Source: a virus. From it: a stretch of 20,462 bases of DNA. A program made the position numbers and the translations under genes. The stretch spans positions 1 through 20,462 of the IMG/VR virus record IMGVR_UViG_3300029839_000013. One strand, 5' to 3'. Below are positions 1-20,462 of the stretch, piece after piece. The notes under the pieces were generated by a model. It was not told where the DNA came from, ran no database searches, and saw only the letters and a list, made by a program, of their open reading frames with translations. Positions within the stretch are counted from its first letter, which is position 1, and the number at the start of each line of letters is the position of its first letter.

Positions 1-99
1 ATAACCGCCCGTAAATATATTGTCGTCGAAAATTTGCCCTTTCGTCTTCAAATATTGGATAATAAAATACATTTCGTTAAATTCACTAGGCGTTAATAC
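1..99. repeat. Terminal direct repeat, identical to 20364-20462. Interpreted as assembly overlap of a circular or terminally redundant genome.
   Basis: Exact 99-bp identity between the two window ends. A minus-strand ORF reads through the junction in frame. Confidence 0.9.
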
Positions 100-405
100 C
101 TCTTTTGTCTGCAAATCTCGCCATTTTTTATAATCTTTTGAATTTTTAGACAAGTTGTCTATTTCGTCAGGCATAACGCAATATTTTTTATAAAAATTTT
201 CAGGCTCTAAAATATAACTGTGCCACATTTTCCCCGCCAGCATAGCCGGGCTTGTTTTTTCCTCATATAAAGGATTTAGGCGGGAATTGAACCAATATTT
301 AACCGGGCTTTCAAGTATTTTTTTCATACCTGAAAAATCAAGTCTTTCGACGTCCGAAAAATATTCATTTTCTGACATATTAAAATATATACCGTCTTTG
401 TGCAT
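1..405 (-). CDS. N-terminal portion of the same wrapped exonuclease gene. Bases 1-99 duplicate 20364-20462.
   Basis: I translated the minus strand from 405 down to 1 and found no stop codon. It is in frame with the ATG at 72-70 that starts the ORF-track protein. The N-terminal motif GIYFNMSENEYFSDVERLDFSGMKKILESPVKYW resembles the DUF3799/exonuclease VIII-like N-terminus (YHa...S.S.LK...SP). Confidence 0.55.
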   Translation of the reverse strand, partial: MHKDGIYFNMSENEYFSDVERLDFSGMKKILESPVKYWFNSRLNPLYEEKTSPAMLAGKMWHSYILEPENFYKKYCVMPDEIDNLSKNSKDYKKWRDLQTKEVLTPSEFNEMYFIIQYLKTKGQIFDDNIFTGGY

Positions 406-539
406 GTTTTACCTCTCTTTTTTTAAATTACATTTCACAAATAATCTTTTTTTTAATAATGTCAATAAAAAAAATGGTTGATTATTATTTTTTTTAGTTT
501 AAATTGGTGTTTGTGATAACTTTTTACGAAAGGAAAAAA
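406..539. promoter_or_regulatory. AT-rich divergent intergenic region between the minus-strand exonuclease start and the plus-strand gene start. It contains a TTGACA hexamer on the minus strand near 459-464.
   Basis: 134 bp of non-coding sequence between two diverging genes. It carries a TTGACA -35-like hexamer but no clean -10 at 17-bp spacing. Confidence 0.3.
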
Positions 540-1193
540 ATGAATAATAATATAAACCCCTTAGATATTAACGCACAAATTTTTTTAGACACGGCAGAAA
601 AAACAACCATAGACAACGAAGCCGATAACTTAAACGCTTGCCAGTATTTAAAAGCTGTTAATGATTATAAAAAAACGCTTGACTTGCAAATTGATACACT
701 TGAAAAACCGCTAAAAACTGAGCTAAAAAAAATAAAAAATCATTATGACGTCCCAGTTAATTTGCTTAAAAAAGCGGATAATATCTTACGCGACAAGTTG
801 TCTAACTATGCAACTGTTAAATTTCATGACTTATTAAATGAACGCTTGGCACAAAAAGCGCAGCGCGAGGATGAAGCTTTAAATTTGGCGCTTGAGCTTG
901 AACAGCAAAAAAATGGTGATTACGACGAAATTACAAAGGAAGCCGTTGTTAAGACTTTGACGGCAAAGCAAAACAAGCTAATTGATGATACGGCCGATAT
1001 TGATGAGGTCAATATCTCAAATGAATATGTTACATTTCGCCAATTGTGGACTTTTGATGTGATCGACATTTCAAAAGTTCCGGCCGAATTTATTACAATT
1101 GACACAAAGGCAGTCAACGAGGCAATTAAGGCCGGAGCGGTGGAGATTGACGGCCTGAGAATTTACAAGAAAATTATTCCGTCTTTAAAATAA
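540..1193 (+). CDS. Hypothetical 217-aa protein with a long charged coiled-coil N-terminus and a compact C-terminal domain. It could be a Gam-like DNA-end-binding protein or a regulator, but this is unassigned.
   Basis: ATG at 540 preceded by GAAAGGAAAAAAA. The ORF track began the frame at an upstream TTG (504). This is the only substantial plus-strand gene. The C-terminal segment (VTFRQLWTFDVIDISK...ITIDTKAVNEAIKAGAVEIDGLRIY) is loosely reminiscent of the Mu Gam C-terminus. Confidence 0.6.
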   Translation: MNNNINPLDINAQIFLDTAEKTTIDNEADNLNACQYLKAVNDYKKTLDLQIDTLEKPLKTELKKIKNHYDVPVNLLKKADNILRDKLSNYATVKFHDLLNERLAQKAQREDEALNLALELEQQKNGDYDEITKEAVVKTLTAKQNKLIDDTADIDEVNISNEYVTFRQLWTFDVIDISKVPAEFITIDTKAVNEAIKAGAVEIDGLRIYKKIIPSLK

Positions 1194-1207
1194 CAAAGGG
1201 GGGCATC

Positions 1208-1351
1208 ATGAAAAAAATACAATTTTCTATTTGTGTCGATGAAGACACGTTAAAAAAGATTGATAAACTGGCTAATAATGAGGGACGCAGCCGGTCGCAA
1301 ATGATTTTATATATTTTGAAACTTTTTTTAAAAAAAGAGGGGAGCGAATAG
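1208..1351 (+). CDS. 47-aa ribbon-helix-helix (CopG/Arc/MetJ-type) DNA-binding protein.
   Basis: ATG at 1208 after AAAGGGGGG. The sequence MKKIQFSICVDEDTLKKIDKLANNEGRSRSQMILYILKLFLKKEGSE fits a beta-strand followed by two helices. It is below the ORF-track size cutoff. Confidence 0.6.
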   Translation: MKKIQFSICVDEDTLKKIDKLANNEGRSRSQMILYILKLFLKKEGSE

Positions 1352-1362
1352 CTCCCTTTTTT
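1331..1362. terminator. Bidirectional rho-independent terminator between the convergent RHH gene and the o-spanin gene.
   Basis: Stem GGGAGC-gaata-GCTCCC, followed by six T on the plus strand and by seven T on the minus strand. Confidence 0.7.
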
Positions 1363-1576
1363 ATTGCGCTTCGTGAAGTTGTTTAACGCACTCCAAAGCG
1401 TCCATTGTGGTAACTATTGAGTAGATACAATTATTTTTTGCTCGTTTACTCGCGCAGCCACTTAATAACATCATCAGGCAAAGCAGTGTTGAGACAATCG
1501 CAATCTTTATTTTGCGGTTTCGCCTCTTTTTTTCGCAATACGGCGATTTTCTTCTCGGTGCAAATAGATTTTTCAT
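1361..1576 (-). CDS. Putative o-spanin (outer-membrane lipoprotein), overlapped type.
   Basis: Signal-like segment IAIVSTLLCLMMLLSGC with an LSGC lipobox, then a short Cys-containing mature region. It starts inside the i-spanin gene in another frame and extends beyond it. Basic N-terminal extension is unusually long, so the true start is uncertain. Confidence 0.5.
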   Translation of the reverse strand: MKNLFAPRRKSPYCEKKRRNRKIKIAIVSTLLCLMMLLSGCASKRAKNNCIYSIVTTMDALECVKQLHEAQ

Positions 1577-2540: not shown

Positions 2541-2999
2541 TTACTTTGTTTCTTCTTTTTTGTCAACGCCAAAGAAAAGTTTAATTTCTTCGTCTCTCCA
2601 TGCGGGAAAATCCAGCCCTTCAAAATTTACAGCTTTCAACGCTTCCCACTCAGTTCGTGCCGTCTCCATGTCTCCGGCTTCGATTGCTTTACAAAGCGGA
2701 GATTCCGGCCAAGTCTCTTTTTGGATGAAGTGCATAATTGACAATAAAGCTTCTTTCTGATTTTCCGACCAATCCCCGGCCGGGAGTTCAAACTCGGCTA
2801 AATGGTCTTTCAAAATCTGGTCGGCCTCATCTTGGGTTACTTCGTCGCCCTCTTGGACAAGACGCCCGCCTTTAAAAGTCTTAGGATATTGCAAAATCCA
2901 ACATCCAATTACCCAAAATGTGTATTGAAATTCTTTGTATGAATTTACGGCTTTCAAGAAACAAGGCGTATATTTTTTAATCATCTCAAAAGCTTTCAT
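2541..2999 (-). CDS. T4-lysozyme-like (GH24 fold) protein, 152 aa. The canonical catalytic Glu/Asp/Thr appear to be missing.
   Basis: ATG at 2999 with an AGGGGAA ribosome-binding site. The ORF-track N-terminal extension (to 3116) overlaps the fibre gene and is spurious. Segments EVTQDEADQILKDHL and ALLSIMHFIQKETW...KAIEAGDMETARTEWEAL...RDEEIKLFFG run parallel to T4L VITKDEAEKLF, ALINMVFQMGETG, RMLQQKRWDEAAV and RAKRVITTF. Confidence 0.55.
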   Translation of the reverse strand: MKAFEMIKKYTPCFLKAVNSYKEFQYTFWVIGCWILQYPKTFKGGRLVQEGDEVTQDEADQILKDHLAEFELPAGDWSENQKEALLSIMHFIQKETWPESPLCKAIEAGDMETARTEWEALKAVNFEGLDFPAWRDEEIKLFFGVDKKEETK

Positions 3000-3009
3000 C
3001 TTTTTTCCC

Positions 3010-4221
3010 CTATTTATATTTACGTAAATATTGTAATTTTCCATATCCATTAACTGAACCGGTACCATAACCACCCCAAACAGATGCGCCGTGATGTGAC
3101 CCTGAACTGTCGCCACCGTTTCCGCCTCTGTTCAATGCTGGCGGCTGTAATAGCTCAACATACCCATGCCCGTTTAATATTGGAGCATCCGCGCCACGGC
3201 CGCCGCCTGACGCGGACGCAGAATAACCTGAATTACATTGTATTACAGTCAACCAATTATCTGGCGTTGTTAAATCGGAAATTTGGAATAAAGACGCTTG
3301 TTCCCTCACCCCTACAACCATGCGTATATTGCAGGGTCTAGCTATGTAAGCATCCCCGACATAACCGGCGGCAGAACCTGAGTAGTTTGTACCATAATAT
3401 GACCAAGTTGTCGGATTGCCGCCGCCGATGCAATGAATTTGAATAACTCCCGGCTTTGTCATTACACCGTTAAAAATTTGCTGCACATTTGGATTTGCCA
3501 CCTCTCCGATGACATACGAAGGCGCATATGCTTGAACGTCAAATACTTTTTGACCATTTAAATACGCTTGGCCTATCGGTTTCGAAACAATTTCTGTTTT
3601 TTTATTACGCCAAAAAGGGGAGCCGTTAACGTTTATTTCTGTTTTGCCAAGATAAATTTGAGCGCGGAAATATGTATCGCTTGCCGCTCCGTCGTTTCCA
3701 ATCCAAGTTTGGGGCGTATTAATTTTATAAAGACTTATTGTGTTTTCAACGGCGATTTCTTCTTTAAAATCTTTATCAGCCGTTTTTTTCATTTGTACAG
3801 TATAGCGCAACCCCGTATATTTAACGATTACGTCATAAACATTATAAGGGTCCATGCCTGTCTTACCTTTTGCATTGACTAAATCCCAGCTTGTACCGTT
3901 TGAGCTTACAAACAATGCTATTTTGCGGTTTAAAATTGCTAATTTTACACTTTTATAATTTTCCGCAGCGCCAAAAATATATTGGTCTTGATTTAAATTG
4001 CCAAGCTCGAAAGAAAATCTGACTTTTATCTCCCAAGGGTACGCCTCGGGGGTAAACGGTGGAATTTTTAAAAAATTGGCATTTGAAAACCCCTTTACAT
4101 TGTTCCCGTTTATTGTTGGGCTTCCGTTTACTTCAAAATTGTTAGATGTTAAATTAGCGGTTAAATATAATCCATTTGCGCCGTATTCTCTTATTCTTTT
4201 ACCCCTATAATACAAAGGCAT
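3010..4221 (-). CDS. Tail fibre or receptor-binding protein (403 aa) with a Gly/Ser-rich C-terminus.
   Basis: Last and largest gene of the tail module. It is Asn/Gly/Thr-rich, and its C-terminal 70 aa are glycine-rich (GGGRGADAPILNGHGY...GGNGGDSSGSHHGASVWGGYGTGSVNGYG). GGAGAA ribosome-binding site upstream. Confidence 0.6.
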   Translation of the reverse strand: MPLYYRGKRIREYGANGLYLTANLTSNNFEVNGSPTINGNNVKGFSNANFLKIPPFTPEAYPWEIKVRFSFELGNLNQDQYIFGAAENYKSVKLAILNRKIALFVSSNGTSWDLVNAKGKTGMDPYNVYDVIVKYTGLRYTVQMKKTADKDFKEEIAVENTISLYKINTPQTWIGNDGAASDTYFRAQIYLGKTEINVNGSPFWRNKKTEIVSKPIGQAYLNGQKVFDVQAYAPSYVIGEVANPNVQQIFNGVMTKPGVIQIHCIGGGNPTTWSYYGTNYSGSAAGYVGDAYIARPCNIRMVVGVREQASLFQISDLTTPDNWLTVIQCNSGYSASASGGGRGADAPILNGHGYVELLQPPALNRGGNGGDSSGSHHGASVWGGYGTGSVNGYGKLQYLRKYK

Positions 4222-7234: not shown

Positions 7235-7738
7235 CTAACCCCTCGGAAGTAAATTAATAACATTATCAACTTTATCAAGTACGGTCGCGGCTAATTGTTT
7301 GGCCGGAACGCTTGAAAACGTCATCTTGACTAAATATTGATTAGTGCCTTCAATCGTTGATTTGCTATAATCGGTTAAATAACCTTGCAACATAAAGCTA
7401 CTATCGTAGTATATTGTAATAAAATAGCTCATGTCCGTCGGGTCTTTGCTGTCGACTAATTCATAAACTTTTGCGGCCAAGCTTGTAAATGTTGTTCCAA
7501 CAACATTATCCTTTATAATCCTAAGTGTTAAAGTTAACGATTGTATGACTTTACGTTGATAAGTTAGCCCGCCAATTGTCTGGCTTTCAATTCTTACAGC
7601 ATCCTTTACATCATCAGCCATAATCCCGCTTATTTTTTCATCCAAATAAATAGGAACGACAGCAGGCAAGCCAATACTCCCAATGCTTAATATATTGGGG
7701 AATGTGAATACAATAACCGGTGCTTCTCCGCCTATCAT
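7235..7738 (-). CDS. Hypothetical tail protein immediately after the tape measure gene. Possibly a baseplate hub or tail-tip component.
   Basis: ATGA overlap with the TMP stop. 167 aa. Confidence 0.4.
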   Translation of the reverse strand: MIGGEAPVIVFTFPNILSIGSIGLPAVVPIYLDEKISGIMADDVKDAVRIESQTIGGLTYQRKVIQSLTLTLRIIKDNVVGTTFTSLAAKVYELVDSKDPTDMSYFITIYYDSSFMLQGYLTDYSKSTIEGTNQYLVKMTFSSVPAKQLAATVLDKVDNVINLLPRG

Positions 7739-17499: not shown

Positions 17500-17671
17500 T
17501 GCCTTTTTGCCTTTCTTCAATATACTTTGTTATTTCCTCAGCTAAAACCGCTAAATCTTTTAAATCTACGGCAATCTTGAAACAATCGCCTTCATAATTG
17601 CCAAATTCTAAAACTTCGTGCCCGATGCCACTATAGACGCGAACATAGCACCTCTTTTTATCATTCCTCAA
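17471..17671 (-). CDS. Hypothetical 66-aa early protein.
   Basis: Compact ORF overlapping its neighbours by short ATG/stop overlaps. Confidence 0.4.
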   Translation of the reverse strand: MRNDKKRCYVRVYSGIGHEVLEFGNYEGDCFKIAVDLKDLAVLAEEITKYIEERQKGNEKFENFKQ

Positions 17672-17942
17672 AGAAATATTCTCCTTCGCTATCTACGGCC
17701 GCAAAAAGCACGTTTTTGTTGAAATCCTCCAACTGGATAACCGAGCAATAACTTATAATCATCTCTTTTGTGATGCCTTTATTTTTTGCCATTTCAATAA
17801 TTGACTTTTGCGACTTTTTAGCAAGTTCAATTTGGCGTTGCCGGTCTAAATACATTTGGCCGTAATAACGTAACTCTTCCGAAAAGCCTTTTTTATTACC
17901 GCAATTGATATTTTTACAAACTGGGAACATAAAATTACTCAT
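17661..17942 (-). CDS. Hypothetical 93-aa protein with an N-terminal Cys cluster (CKNINCGN).
   Basis: ORF with an upstream overlap with the 55-aa ORF. Confidence 0.4.
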   Translation of the reverse strand: MSNFMFPVCKNINCGNKKGFSEELRYYGQMYLDRQRQIELAKKSQKSIIEMAKNKGITKEMIISYCSVIQLEDFNKNVLFAAVDSEGEYFFEE

Positions 17943-18102
17943 TTTTATTGTCCTCTCTCAGTTTTTTTAAAACTTCTTTCAAATAAGCAAATTCGGCTTC
18001 TGTTAAAAAAAATTGCCTTTGCTTGCGTCCGCTCTTTTTTTGAGCCTCACGGTATCTTTTTGCCCGTTCTCGCAGTATTTTATGGTATTCATCTAACTTC
18101 AT
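17935..18102 (-). CDS. Unlisted 55-aa basic ORF (MKLDEYHKILRERAKRYREAQKKSGRKQRQFFLTEAEFAYLKEVLKKLREDNKNE).
   Basis: Fills the 146-bp gap between two ORF-track genes. Its stop overlaps the next ATG (AAAAATGAGTAA). Confidence 0.3.
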   Translation of the reverse strand: MKLDEYHKILRERAKRYREAQKKSGRKQRQFFLTEAEFAYLKEVLKKLREDNKNE

Positions 18103-18364
18103 TTATTATCCTTTCACATTCAATTAAAAATCTGTTTTTCTTATCTTGAAAAACCGCCCTTAAATCGTCAATCAATTCTTCTTTTGCGGTCTCTAAGGCG
18201 TCGGCTTGGTCACCCCTCCCGTAATCCTCTACATCGACGCCGAACCAATTTTTAAACACAATTTTGGCGCTTGATTGCAAAATTGAAAGCTGGCGGCTGT
18301 AAACTTCTTCGGCCAAACCGTTATTTAATTCGCTCATTTCGCCCCTTAATAAATCACTATTCAT
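18089..18364 (-). CDS. Hypothetical 91-aa acidic protein. First gene downstream of promoter/operator copy 1.
   Basis: A GGGGG ribosome-binding site lies 8 nt upstream of the ATG. It begins MNSDLL, the same six codons found in the duplicated copy. Confidence 0.5.
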   Translation of the reverse strand: MNSDLLRGEMSELNNGLAEEVYSRQLSILQSSAKIVFKNWFGVDVEDYGRGDQADALETAKEELIDDLRAVFQDKKNRFLIECERIINEVR

Positions 18365-18423
18365 TTTACTAACCCCCTTTGTTATTATGTTATTAGTATG
18401 ATACTAATATTTTACGATGTCAA
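18365..18423 (-). promoter_or_regulatory. Sigma70-type promoter with an embedded 19-bp perfect palindromic operator (copy 1).
   Basis: On the minus strand: TTGACA, a 17-nt spacer, then CATACT. The palindrome TATTAGTAT-G-ATACTAATA spans the spacer and the -10. Confidence 0.6.
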
Positions 18424-18434
18424 CACCTTTTTTT

Positions 18435-18468
18435 AAAAAAAACACCCTATTTTTTAGGGTGTTTTTAA
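18435..18468. terminator. Rho-independent terminator after the DUF1566 gene.
   Basis: AAAAACACCCTA-ttttt-TAGGGTGTTTTT. T-runs are present in both orientations. Confidence 0.6.
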
Positions 18469-18489: not shown

Positions 18490-18900
18490 TTAAAAAGCTA
18501 GAACCGGACGAACGTAGGTGCTATCGTAGTTGCTCTTACCGTAGTCGTACCTGGTACCGTCACTCATACGCAACCTCCACGCATAGTTGCTGTCGTACTC
18601 AGTAGAGGACCAGTACCAGCATTCTTTTAACTCCGGCAGGTTAGCGGCGCTCAAAGCGGCATTGATTTTGTCTTTGTTCAAAAAAATTCCGGTTAGTTCA
18701 TCAATAGTAGGGCAGCGGCCACCGGCGGATTGGCAAAACTGTTGCGCTTCGTCAAAATTAAGCCATTCCTCGCTCTCAACCGGCATAATAGCGATTTCGT
18801 GCGTGTCGGTAACATTGCACAATATGCCGGCAATCGTTTTAGACTGATCAAGCTCTTCCGAGCGCGTTCCGTCAGTGTAAATGTATGCTCCTGTTTTCAT
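18490..18900 (-). CDS. DUF1566 (Lcl C-terminal domain-like) protein.
   Basis: GRCPTIDEL...YWSSTEY...YVRPV matches the DUF1566 pattern WRLPT.eEL...YWSST...vRcV. Strong AAGGAGAA ribosome-binding site. Confidence 0.55.
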   Translation of the reverse strand: MKTGAYIYTDGTRSEELDQSKTIAGILCNVTDTHEIAIMPVESEEWLNFDEAQQFCQSAGGRCPTIDELTGIFLNKDKINAALSAANLPELKECWYWSSTEYDSNYAWRLRMSDGTRYDYGKSNYDSTYVRPVLAF

Positions 18901-18910
18901 TTTTTTCTCC

Positions 18911-19045
18911 TTATATTAAAAAAGTTAAAATAAATATTGCTGTTGAATACCCACAAAAAAAACCAATCAAAAAATCGTCTATGTTTAACACTCTTTTTTT
19001 TCGTAGTGGCGCGGTGGCTTCAAATTTAAGTAAATCACTATTCAT
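18911..19045 (-). CDS. 44-aa peptide with a hydrophobic C-terminus (MNSDLLKFEATAPLRKKRVLNIDDFLIGFFCGYSTAIFILTFLI). Speculative.
   Basis: Starts with the duplicated RBS and first six codons of the 91-aa gene. Its stop overlaps the ribosome-binding site of the DUF1566 gene. Confidence 0.3.
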   Translation of the reverse strand: MNSDLLKFEATAPLRKKRVLNIDDFLIGFFCGYSTAIFILTFLI

Positions 19046-19104
19046 TTTGTTAACCCCCTTTGTTATTATGTTATTAGTATGATACTAATATTTTACGATG
19101 TCAA
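19046..19104 (-). promoter_or_regulatory. Promoter/operator copy 2.
   Basis: 75 of 77 bp identical to copy 1, including TTGACA, the 17-nt spacer, CATACT, the 19-bp palindrome and the GGGGG ribosome-binding site. Confidence 0.6.
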
Positions 19105-19107
19105 CAC

Positions 19108-19482
19108 TTAATTATAATTTTCTTTTATTTTTTTTAGAGAAACATCGTAACAATCTAAAAATGAATAAGGAATTTTCATATTTCCTTGCTTTAGCATCAA
19201 AACAAACGCCGCTTTATCTGGCCTAAATTCAATAATTCCTTCGACATTTAATGCTGATGAATAAACGATGTCGTTATTATATAGCTTATTGCCTAATTTA
19301 TCTTTTTGGCCTGAAAAAAAATCTACACAATAATAAGGCGATTTACGACGGTCATATGTGTTTAATTGCTTATTATTACGCTTTAAATTCCCCTCTGGGC
19401 TAAGATAGTAACCGCAATAATATATCTTTTTCAAGCGTAGTTGATGCCCAACACGGCATAATTTAACAACTCTATAATCCAT
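19108..19482 (-). CDS. YopX-like protein (124 aa).
   Basis: SGQKDKLGNKLYNNDIV...EGIIEF is similar to the YopX core TGLKDKNGKEIYEGDIV...GVV.F. AGGGTG ribosome-binding site. Confidence 0.4.
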   Translation of the reverse strand: MDYRVVKLCRVGHQLRLKKIYYCGYYLSPEGNLKRNNKQLNTYDRRKSPYYCVDFFSGQKDKLGNKLYNNDIVYSSALNVEGIIEFRPDKAAFVLMLKQGNMKIPYSFLDCYDVSLKKIKENYN

Positions 19483-19840
19483 TTCGTAACACCCTAATTT
19501 CTTTAATTTTTTTTAAGCAAACTTCCCGGTTGCCTGAATTATTATACAAGAAAAGCGCCAACTGTTCCGGCTCGGTTACTCCGATGCACTTTAAAAAATG
19601 CTTCTCGTTGCCGTCGATATGTAACATTTGATGACAAACAGGGCAAAGCGGGAGTGTAAACTTATCGTCTGACTTCGTCCCCATTCCTTTACTTTTAACC
19701 TTGGGGAAAGCGAACCCCTCCCAACCTTTGGCCGCCTCCAAATATTCCCGCCTAACCCTTAATAAATGGTGATGCGTCGGCTCTTTTCCGCAGTTTAAAC
19801 ATATCAAACTATCAATAAATTTTAAATGTTTAGCGCTCAT
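19472..19840 (-). CDS. HNH endonuclease.
   Basis: CLNCGK...THHH...N...CPVCHQMLH gives the Cys pairs and His residues in the HNH arrangement. GGAGGTG ribosome-binding site. Confidence 0.55.
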   Translation of the reverse strand: MSAKHLKFIDSLICLNCGKEPTHHHLLRVRREYLEAAKGWEGFAFPKVKSKGMGTKSDDKFTLPLCPVCHQMLHIDGNEKHFLKCIGVTEPEQLALFLYNNSGNREVCLKKIKEIRVLRNGL

Positions 19841-20462
19841 AGTCTGACACCTCCAAAATTTTAAAAAATAGTTGTGGGAAATCTTCGTCTTTTAAAACAG
19901 ATAAATAGTCTTTTTTACCAAGCCAAGCCCGGTTAAGTCCGTACTCTCGGCAATAAAATTTATAAACATCTAATGCTTTTTTTACCTCTCCAGCAGCCAA
20001 ACGATAAAGGTCAGGGCAGGCTCCCGGCATGAAAGCGCGTAACGATGCTTCGGGCACTATCCGGCTAACATAACAAACATAAGGGCTTATGTCCTCTTGT
20101 TGTTTAAGCTCATGCCAAAACTCAACTTGCTTTTTGTCGCCAAATACTTGGCTATTATCAAAAGATTTTGCGGCATTTATGGATTCGCAATAAAAATAAA
20201 GCTGCATATAGACCTTATACTTGATGAAGAAAAGACGACAATAATCGTCAAAATCTTCTACGCTGGCCACTGTCTTTAAATCGATTAACTGTTTAAGCCT
20301 TAAGTAGTCAATGCGCGCCTTACATTTTACAGCTTGATAGGTGAAAAATATAGAGACTTCGGGATAACCGCCCGTAAATATATTGTCGTCGAAAATTTGC
20401 CCTTTCGTCTTCAAATATTGGATAATAAAATACATTTCGTTAAATTCACTAGGCGTTAATAC
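19830..20462 (-). CDS. C-terminal two-thirds of a PD-(D/E)XK exonuclease (DUF3799/RecE-like) gene. The gene continues across the window end into 1-405, and the full product is about 312 aa.
   Basis: The ORF track entry 19830-20435 begins at an internal Met. The same frame stays open upstream through the repeat, to an ATG at about 405 with an AGAGAGGT ribosome-binding site. Putative catalytic core is RIDYL...LIDLKT, matching the D...(D/E)xK pattern. Confidence 0.55.
   Translation of the reverse strand, partial: VLTPSEFNEMYFIIQYLKTKGQIFDDNIFTGGYPEVSIFFTYQAVKCKARIDYLRLKQLIDLKTVASVEDFDDYCRLFFIKYKVYMQLYFYCESINAAKSFDNSQVFGDKKQVEFWHELKQQEDISPYVCYVSRIVPEASLRAFMPGACPDLYRLAAGEVKKALDVYKFYCREYGLNRAWLGKKDYLSVLKDEDFPQLFFKILEVSDYER
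20364..20462. repeat. Second copy of the terminal repeat (same as 1-99).
   Basis: Exact identity to bases 1-99. Confidence 0.9.

Follow-up and report, generated by a model that had tools for sequence, protein, structure and literature searches.

The plus-strand island and its signals

Investigating the viral DNA filed in IMG/VR as IMGVR_UViG_3300029839_000013 (positions 1 to 20,462 of that record; this whole stretch of 20,462 nucleotides is called the window here), we followed up a small island of two genes near its beginning, which encodes a 217-aa coiled-coil protein and a 47-aa ribbon-helix-helix (RHH) protein. Plus-strand coding is confined to these two genes (540-1193 and 1208-1351); the remaining conserved genes all lie on the minus strand, as do, apart from the island, all open reading frames (ORFs) of at least 100 aa that are conserved in relatives. 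Other long plus-strand ORFs were considered and rejected as antisense shadows, scoring 44-50 bits as compared to 118-307 bits for the minus-strand frame. A preliminary description of this DNA had regarded the island as its only plus-strand coding, and this holds, together with the coordinates and the sizes given there for the two products. Since the first 99 bases of the window are identical to its last 99 (an exact 99-bp repeat, 1-99 versus 20364-20462), the ends close into a circle of ~20,363 bp, and the window thus covers a whole phage genome, circular (or terminally redundant) in form, with a large terminase subunit gene, a lysis cassette of spanin-like, Hydrolase_2 and lysozyme genes, and an early region.

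The ORF list gives 504..1193 (plus strand, TTG start) and 1208..1351 (plus strand, 47 aa). Translation of the large gene likely starts at ATG 540, yielding 217 aa, because a Shine-Dalgarno-like AAGGA (530..534, plus strand) precedes this codon and the homologues begin at the same Met. The gene thus delimited (540..1193, plus strand) is assigned to phrog_10477 by the PHROG match of its translation and by the family search; its product was modelled with AlphaFold2 (AF2). The RHH gene (1208..1351, plus strand), recognised by the Pfam model RHH_1, follows 14 nt downstream and is presumably co-transcribed; a putative Shine-Dalgarno-like AAGGGGGG at 1196..1203 (plus strand) lies upstream of its ATG 1208.

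The signals around the pair were read in a clade of seven genomes or contigs of 20-25 kb phages: the window, L149, L001 (Dulem virus 29), L002, L028, L030 and L032. In the region 406-539 the window appears to carry two back-to-back sigma70-type promoters. The leftward early promoter, which would drive the exonuclease operon, has its -35 box TTGACA (TGTCAA on the plus strand) at 460..465 on the minus strand, kept in all six intergenic regions, and, after a 16-nt spacer, a candidate -10 box TATTTG at 438..443 (minus strand); the relatives have TATATT, TATTTT or TATAAG there, at a spacing equal to that of the window. The putative rightward promoter, which would serve the two-gene operon, has a -35 box TTGATT at 478..483 (plus strand), aligning with TTGACA of the relatives (TTGAAA in L001), and a candidate -10 box TAAATT at 500..505 (plus strand), again after 16 nt, where the relatives show TATACT, TATAAA or TAAATT 15-17 nt after TTGACA. 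The arrangement TGTCAA-N8-21-TTGACA/TTGAAA is conserved in five relatives (L001, L002, L028, L030, L032), and in L149, whose DNA is 95.6% identical to the window, nine substitutions in the spacer spare both -35 boxes. Both boxes are framed by A/T tracts, and a -10-like hexamer follows each at 15-17 nt. These tracts are inverted (T8A...TA8 around 460-465 and TA8T...AT8A around 478-483), are phased at ~21-22 bp and recur in similar form in five relatives; they may represent UP elements or curved DNA. A 'palindrome' in 406-539, considered as an operator, is accounted for by the two back-to-back -35 boxes with their A/T tracts.

At its other end the pair is closed by a bidirectional intrinsic terminator (1334..1362, both strands), which overlaps the RHH stop codon and separates the operon from the convergent lysis genes. 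Its hairpin is preceded by an A-run and followed by a T-run; the segment 1328-1368 folds at -18 kcal/mol on the plus strand (z -4.7; none of 200 shuffles was as good) and at -12.2 kcal/mol on the minus strand (z -2.8). Terminators of the same A-tract/hairpin/T-tract type are found 3' of the pair in five relatives too. The bracketing of the pair by a divergent promoter region and a bidirectional terminator, as initially described, is therefore borne out by the conserved -35 pair and by a hairpin that folds on both strands.

Conservation of the pair

The divergent neighbour of the island is an exonuclease gene spanning the circle junction, with its 5' part at 1..405 and its 3' part at 19830..20363 (both minus strand; 20364-20462 repeat window positions 1-99). 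Joined from 405..1 and 20363..19830, it encodes 312 aa matching Pfam DUF3799 (E 3e-16) and phrog_412 'exonuclease VIII', and by these profile matches the product is a RecE/exonuclease VIII-like PD-(D/E)XK enzyme. In the window and its six relatives alike, this DUF3799 exonuclease is the divergent neighbour and has its promoter region in common with the pair. The whole layout is shared by all seven members of the clade: a leftward exonuclease gene, back-to-back promoters, genes for a 217-222-aa protein and a 43-52-aa RHH protein read rightward, and, 3' of the pair, the bidirectional terminator followed by convergent lysis genes. Whether orthologous phages keep the two genes together had been raised as a check in the preliminary description, and they do so in seven of seven clade genomes.

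The large proteins of L001, L002, L028, L030 and L032 are 39-44% identical to that of the window. Compared with L149, 34 of the differences in the large gene are synonymous and 6 non-synonymous, and all 7 in the RHH gene are synonymous; both genes are under purifying selection. One or two extra plus-strand genes without counterpart in the window are present in each of L002, L030 and L031.

The small ribbon-helix-helix protein

The 47-aa protein matches the Pfam model RHH_1 (PF01402) with 30.4 bits (cut-off 20.5; E 3.4e-7) as well as Arc-like and CopG-like repressor PHROGs, and the L149 orthologue is likewise annotated as RHH_1. Small ORFs orthologous to its gene occupy the corresponding place in L001, L002, L028, L030, L032 and L149, and an alignment of six orthologues displays an IxFxIxVD strand, a helix, the motif (E)GRSRS and another helix. 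This strand-helix-helix pattern, like the RHH_1 match, is common to the 47-aa protein and the CopG/Arc/Mnt repressors (PF01402 and relatives). Judged from the alignment, the protein is a minimal RHH protein without extra domain, like CopG or Arc, and it is the sole recognisable DNA-binding regulator found in the genome. The copG-repB operon opens with its RHH gene, whereas the operon described here ends with it.

A candidate target of the RHH protein is an 87-nt direct repeat (18350-18436 and 19031-19117, 93% identical), which in its composition resembles a duplicated promoter-operator. Each copy contains a minus-strand -35 box TTGACA, a perfect 19-bp palindrome TATTAGTATGATACTAATA (18391-18409; 19072-19090) and a ribosome-binding site, and each also starts a minus-strand ORF with MNSDL as its first five codons (18089-18364, 91 aa; 18911-19045, 44 aa). 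A different palindrome, TATCTATTATAGATA, is found in two copies in L030 (6586-6608, this first copy being extended to 23 bp, and 7251-7265), near the extra plus-strand gene of that phage in the tail-fibre/lysis region.

The large protein and its family

The 217-aa protein matches phrog_10477 with E 3e-10 (residues 11-202 versus profile positions 29-230 of 243), a family that is labelled 'exonuclease' and has no Pfam model. A profile search of 1.84 billion cluster representatives retrieved 264 when the limit was set at E ≤ 1e-10 and 2652 when it was relaxed to E ≤ 1e-3, the weaker tail of which may contain coiled-coil noise; the family accordingly comprises at least 264 and perhaps ~2,600 sequence clusters. 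Among the 140 best relatives, 137 match phrog_10477. The family is almost wholly metagenomic: among 50,697 deposited phage genomes, tblastn with three diverse members picked out Dulem virus 29 only, and none of ten family clusters that were looked up bears an informative name. Querying Pfam, NCBIfam, PADLOC and PDB with the sequence of the 217-aa protein yielded no more than Exo70_N and CSF-1, at E>0.04, which we do not consider meaningful. Confident homology to a structural or an enzyme family, which would have spoken against the preliminary description, was not found in these searches.

With five sequences the AF2 model reached a pLDDT (predicted local distance difference test) score of 61.7, with 140 family sequences one of 93.3. 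The latter model consists of helices at residues 7-21, 27-124 (98 residues long) and 130-152, a strand at 164-174, a helix at 189-197 and a strand at 206-216, in agreement with the coiled coil and small C-terminal domain initially predicted. Three parts can thus be distinguished: at the N-terminus the Gam-like helices, then a spacer of variable, acidic coiled coil, and finally, over residues ~160-217, a beta-alpha-beta domain of the Gp157 type. Near-invariant positions in the family are P57, W170, P181, G199, I203, G205 and I208. The preliminary description had proposed to look for a Mu Gam/Ku fold by Foldseek, and this search did not find one: against PDB, the good model returned nothing at E ≤ 0.001 and generic helical matches only, and the Mu Gam entry 2P2U does not appear in the listed fold matches. 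A fold search of BFVD gave a 425-aa viral protein (E 1.5e-7) and weak matches to phage proteins containing HNH or PD-(D/E)XK domains; it should be noted that fold searches with the full-length model are dominated by its long helices.

Links to Gp157, Mu Gam and DUF1351

Profile-profile comparison by hhalign connects the two ends of the protein to two different families. The C-terminal domain aligns with the C-terminus of gp157 of phage Sfi11 with 94.8% probability (P 4.9e-8, 53 columns, score 38.8), and the N-terminal 100 residues align with residues 1-85 of Mu Gam with 77.9% (P 1.8e-5, score 28.8). Controls, i.e. the reversed and 30 column-shuffled profiles, stayed at or below 16.8 against the 28.8 for Gam and at or below 15.4 against the 38.8 for Gp157, where the reversed control scored 8.2. 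The crossed comparisons gave 1.5% (C-terminus versus Gam C-terminus) and 0.8% (N-terminus versus Gp157 N-terminus, with a shallow Gp157 profile). The weak resemblance to Mu Gam had been placed in the C-terminal part by the preliminary description, and this was mistaken: the Gam-like similarity sits in the N-terminal helices, while the C-terminus is Gp157-like. By these alignments the large protein and Siphovirus Gp157 have homologous C-terminal domains, and a helical segment is probably common to the large protein and Gam.

Measured against the families' own models, the large protein is a member of neither: it has no match at E ≤ 1 to Pfam Sipho_Gp157 (PF05565; gathering cut-off 28.6 bits) and none to Phage_Mu_Gam (PF07352). 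HMMER matches do occur among its 140 relatives, six of which hit Sipho_Gp157 (weakly; best 1.3e-4), four DUF1351 and one Phage_Mu_Gam (E 0.0024). Some family members match phrog_253 and phrog_491 (labelled 'Mu Gam-like end protection'), one of them matching phrog_491 over both halves (E 0.01); Sfi11 gp157 itself belongs to PF05565 and phrog_253, and true Mu Gam to phrog_491. The label 'Mu Gam-like end protection' of phrog_253 was not reproduced in a direct hhalign comparison of gp157 with Mu Gam (0.2%, shallow profiles).

What the window protein has in common with Siphovirus Gp157 (PF05565; phrog_253; type: Streptococcus thermophilus phage Sfi11/Sfi21 gp157) is foremost the C-terminal domain, with the consensus ...VvD..kVP.EY....D.k.v..ai..G..I.G..i.....v.R at the extreme C-terminus; in both proteins the N-terminal part is helical, and both are encoded in phage replication/recombination modules, but the window protein is 60 residues longer, through a far longer coiled coil. 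With Mu Gam (PF07352; phrog_491; PDB 2P2U) it probably has the N-terminal motif ...ND.i..I...F.....P(l/i)k......L...v..(W/Y) in common, and it differs by a charged coiled-coil insert of 35-70 residues. DUF1351 (PF07083) and PHROGs 674 and 1376 give weak HMMER matches to 4, 21 and 15 of the 140 members, respectively, in the N-terminal helical region, all of them below the family thresholds.

Genomic neighbourhood of the family

Distant members of the family are found in recombination modules. At L145 the gene order is ERF, YqaJ exonuclease, a 63-aa gene and the family member, and at L006 a Rad52-like protein, an exonuclease (phrog_298) and the family member; at L011 the family member is followed by a RecT-like protein, and at L009 and L012 a 'DNA repair exonuclease' (phrog_7339) lies at most two genes on. 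A Pfam tally of 94 neighbouring proteins contains replication and recombination families only (DnaB, ERCC4, HNH, primase, helicase). No RHH gene adjoins these distant family members.

This setting resembles what has been described for Firmicutes phages, in which the genes for Mu gam, DUF2483, DUF1351 and sipho_gp157 share a slot beside the erf-ssb and sak4 modules, which was taken as 'implying analogous function' (PMC8093625). DUF1351 genes also adjoin recT, red-beta, erf and sak4, Mu Gam genes, like those of the window-protein family, lie beside recombination genes, and DUF3799 is a usual exonuclease partner of RecT (PMC8093625). The same neighbourhood logic, a small accessory protein beside an exonuclease and an annealing protein, underlies lambda Red (gam-bet-exo) and RecET, the window exonuclease being of the RecE/exonuclease VIII type (phrog_412). 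No sequence relation of the large protein to lambda Gam was found (no Pfam match), and, unlike lambda Red, the phage of the window has no recognisable annealing protein and carries its accessory gene divergently, with a regulator of its own.

Function of the island and competing explanations

Taking these lines together, we consider it moderately probable that the island combines a Gam-analogue accessory protein of the recombination module with a regulator of CopG/Arc type that would act on the divergent promoters. For the large protein, membership of the Gp157/DUF1351/Gam group of recombination-module accessory proteins is the best reading. In the model it has a long coiled-coil stalk and is probably dimeric, and it may work with nucleases or shield DNA from them; the nuclease concerned could be either the cognate DUF3799 exonuclease, encoded divergently from the common promoter region, or host RecBCD/AddAB. 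By analogy, it would occupy the role that gam has beside lambda bet and exo. The RHH protein most likely regulates its own operon, and perhaps also the back-to-back early promoter or other promoters, and the bidirectional terminator would insulate the operon against convergent late (lysis) transcription. As the RHH gene is kept in all clade genomes and is missing beside the distant members, its distribution fits a clade-specific addition, which may have been acquired when the large gene became a separate transcription unit. The preliminary description had listed a Gam-like DNA-end protector, in view of the adjacent exonuclease, as one of four options, and it is this option that is now best supported, albeit on grounds other than the C-terminal resemblance it invoked.

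Several observations speak against this account. Neither hhalign nor the fold searches detected in the large protein the Ku-like core by which Gam is defined, and the N-terminal similarity to Gam concerns a helical, coiled-coil-prone segment compared with a shallow Gam profile. Since the profiles are shallow (Gp157 at least 83% and Gam at least 57% identity, from viral-contig scans; homologue searches gave close relatives only, with identities of at least 72% for Gam and at least 85% for Gp157), the hhalign probabilities are rough and to be taken as conservative. The large protein is acidic (pI ~5, net charge -8), which is unusual in a DNA binder. Neither an annealing protein nor a polymerase, primase or integrase was recognised in the early operon, and no annealing protein is recognisable in the clade. 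An operator for the RHH protein was not found in 406-539, nor do any non-trivial 9-mers recur between 406-539 and other intergenic regions. To our knowledge, moreover, only Mu Gam has been characterised biochemically, Gp157, DUF1351 and the phrog_10477 family being without known biochemical function. Regarding the charge, acidity would suit a nuclease-binding or DNA-mimic role; pI and net charge as such were discarded as a clue to DNA binding, being uninformative in a family whose pI ranges from 5.4 to 9.5.

An immunity or lysogeny-type control module, in which the RHH protein would be the main repressor (Arc/Mnt/CI-like) and the 217-aa protein a co-regulator, anti-repressor or establishment factor, would explain the position of the island, which is that of lysogeny modules in temperate phages: the late genes end on one side of it, and the divergent early promoter lies on the other. 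It would also suit the absence of any other recognisable regulator, the 'HTH XRE' protein of Dulem virus 29 being represented in the window by its C-terminal part only, and it could draw on the two 19-bp palindromes of the duplicated segment as plausible repressor targets. That palindrome, however, is not present in 406-539, and the large-protein family occurs in recombination/replication modules that lack an RHH gene. No integrase or partition gene was recognised among the scanned ORFs, as the preliminary description had stated for integrase, or is annotated in Dulem virus 29, and a scan of 185,579 GTDB species genomes, by short peptide patterns (alignment A1 or TerL) only, brought up no relative in a prophage or plasmid. 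We therefore regard such a module as rather unlikely; of the repressor module controlling palindromic operators, as initially suggested, a plausible role remains for the RHH half, while the 'palindrome' of 406-539 has turned out to be a pair of -35 boxes. Episome maintenance, with the RHH protein as a ParG/omega-like centromere binder and the coiled-coil protein as a non-ATPase partner, is a further option which we judge improbable. RHH proteins are the usual centromere binders of type Ib partition systems, the order and sizes of the genes (~217 aa, then ~47 aa RHH) mimic type Ib operons such as parF-parG or delta-omega (~200 aa plus a small RHH protein), and the genome is circular in assembly. 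The large protein, by contrast, has no Walker A motif in a regular-expression search and no match to ParA, ParM, TubZ or CbiA in Pfam/NCBIfam; its model, all-helical apart from the small beta-alpha-beta domain, has no P-loop fold; iterated centromere-like repeats are not seen near the operon; its distant homologues sit in recombination modules; and the short-peptide-pattern scans revealed no plasmid-like copies in bacterial genomes.

That the pair could be a moron serving as toxin-antitoxin, abortive-infection or superinfection-exclusion system, with the RHH protein as antitoxin, is suggested by its moron-like equipment with promoter and terminator, by the frequency of RHH domains among antitoxins and by weak NCBIfam matches to VapB/RelB-like models (E 0.05-0.12). 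PADLOC has no match for either protein, though, and no toxin domain is found in Pfam, NCBIfam or PHROG searches; the RHH gene comes second, where antitoxin genes usually come first; the large-protein family is widespread without an RHH partner; and the pair belongs to the conserved core layout of the clade rather than to a variable insertion. This option thus appears about as improbable as partition, and both had figured in the preliminary description. Taken literally, the PHROG label would make the large protein an exonuclease itself. One family member does weakly match phrog_7655, 'RecE-like recombination exonuclease', in addition to the annotation of phrog_10477. Against this, no nuclease domain is found in Pfam or NCBIfam, the confident model (three helices and a 60-residue beta-alpha-beta domain) has no catalytic-type fold, and the conserved residues (P57, W170, P181, G199, I203, G205, I208) are not acidic catalytic ones. 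An exonuclease activity of the large protein is in our view highly improbable; the label looks wrong, and genes that adjoin those of the family or are fused to them are its probable source.

Further features of the genome

In the early operon, a DUF968 (HNH-like) protein is encoded directly after the exonuclease (19472-19840, minus strand), and an Lcl_C/DUF1566-domain protein at 18490-18900 (minus strand). The match of a 93-aa protein (17661-17942, minus strand) to the 'HTH XRE' protein from Dulem virus 29 is confined to residues 70-140 of the latter, its C-terminal half; the 93-aa protein has no helix-turn-helix domain, nor does an upstream 55-aa ORF provide one. The genome encodes two different cell-wall hydrolases, and a terminator-like hairpin of 12 pairs (2485-2513) beside a TGTCAA at 2475 (region 2470-2520) lies in the 290 nt that separate the Hydrolase_2 gene (1828-2250) from the lysozyme gene (2541-3116); this suggests a transcription boundary within the lysis region.

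Implications

Gam/Gp157/DUF1351-type accessory genes are among the commonest unexplained genes of phage recombination modules. Apart from its family link, the cassette described here represents ordinary phage early-gene organisation. It is through the Gp157 domain, the probable Gam helical segment and the recombination-gene neighbourhood that its family ties these gene slots together and that an annotation is corrected. We tentatively go one step further, in what we regard as a possible, rather speculative extension: phrog_10477 would be a distinct class of recombination-module accessory proteins, linked to Mu Gam by its N-terminal helices and to Gp157 by its C-terminal domain, so that Gam, Gp157, DUF1351 and phrog_10477 would together make up a single superfamily whose members control nucleases or handle DNA ends; in the clade of the window its gene would have become an autonomously regulated cassette. 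If this were true, the protein could serve as an early counter-defence against RecBCD/AddAB or regulate the RecE-like exonuclease of the phage itself, with its acidic coiled coil perhaps mimicking DNA. Should the protein control RecBCD/AddAB or RecE-like nucleases, this compact cassette of ~960 bp, which brings its own promoter, regulator and terminator, may find use in recombineering where lambda Gam fails.

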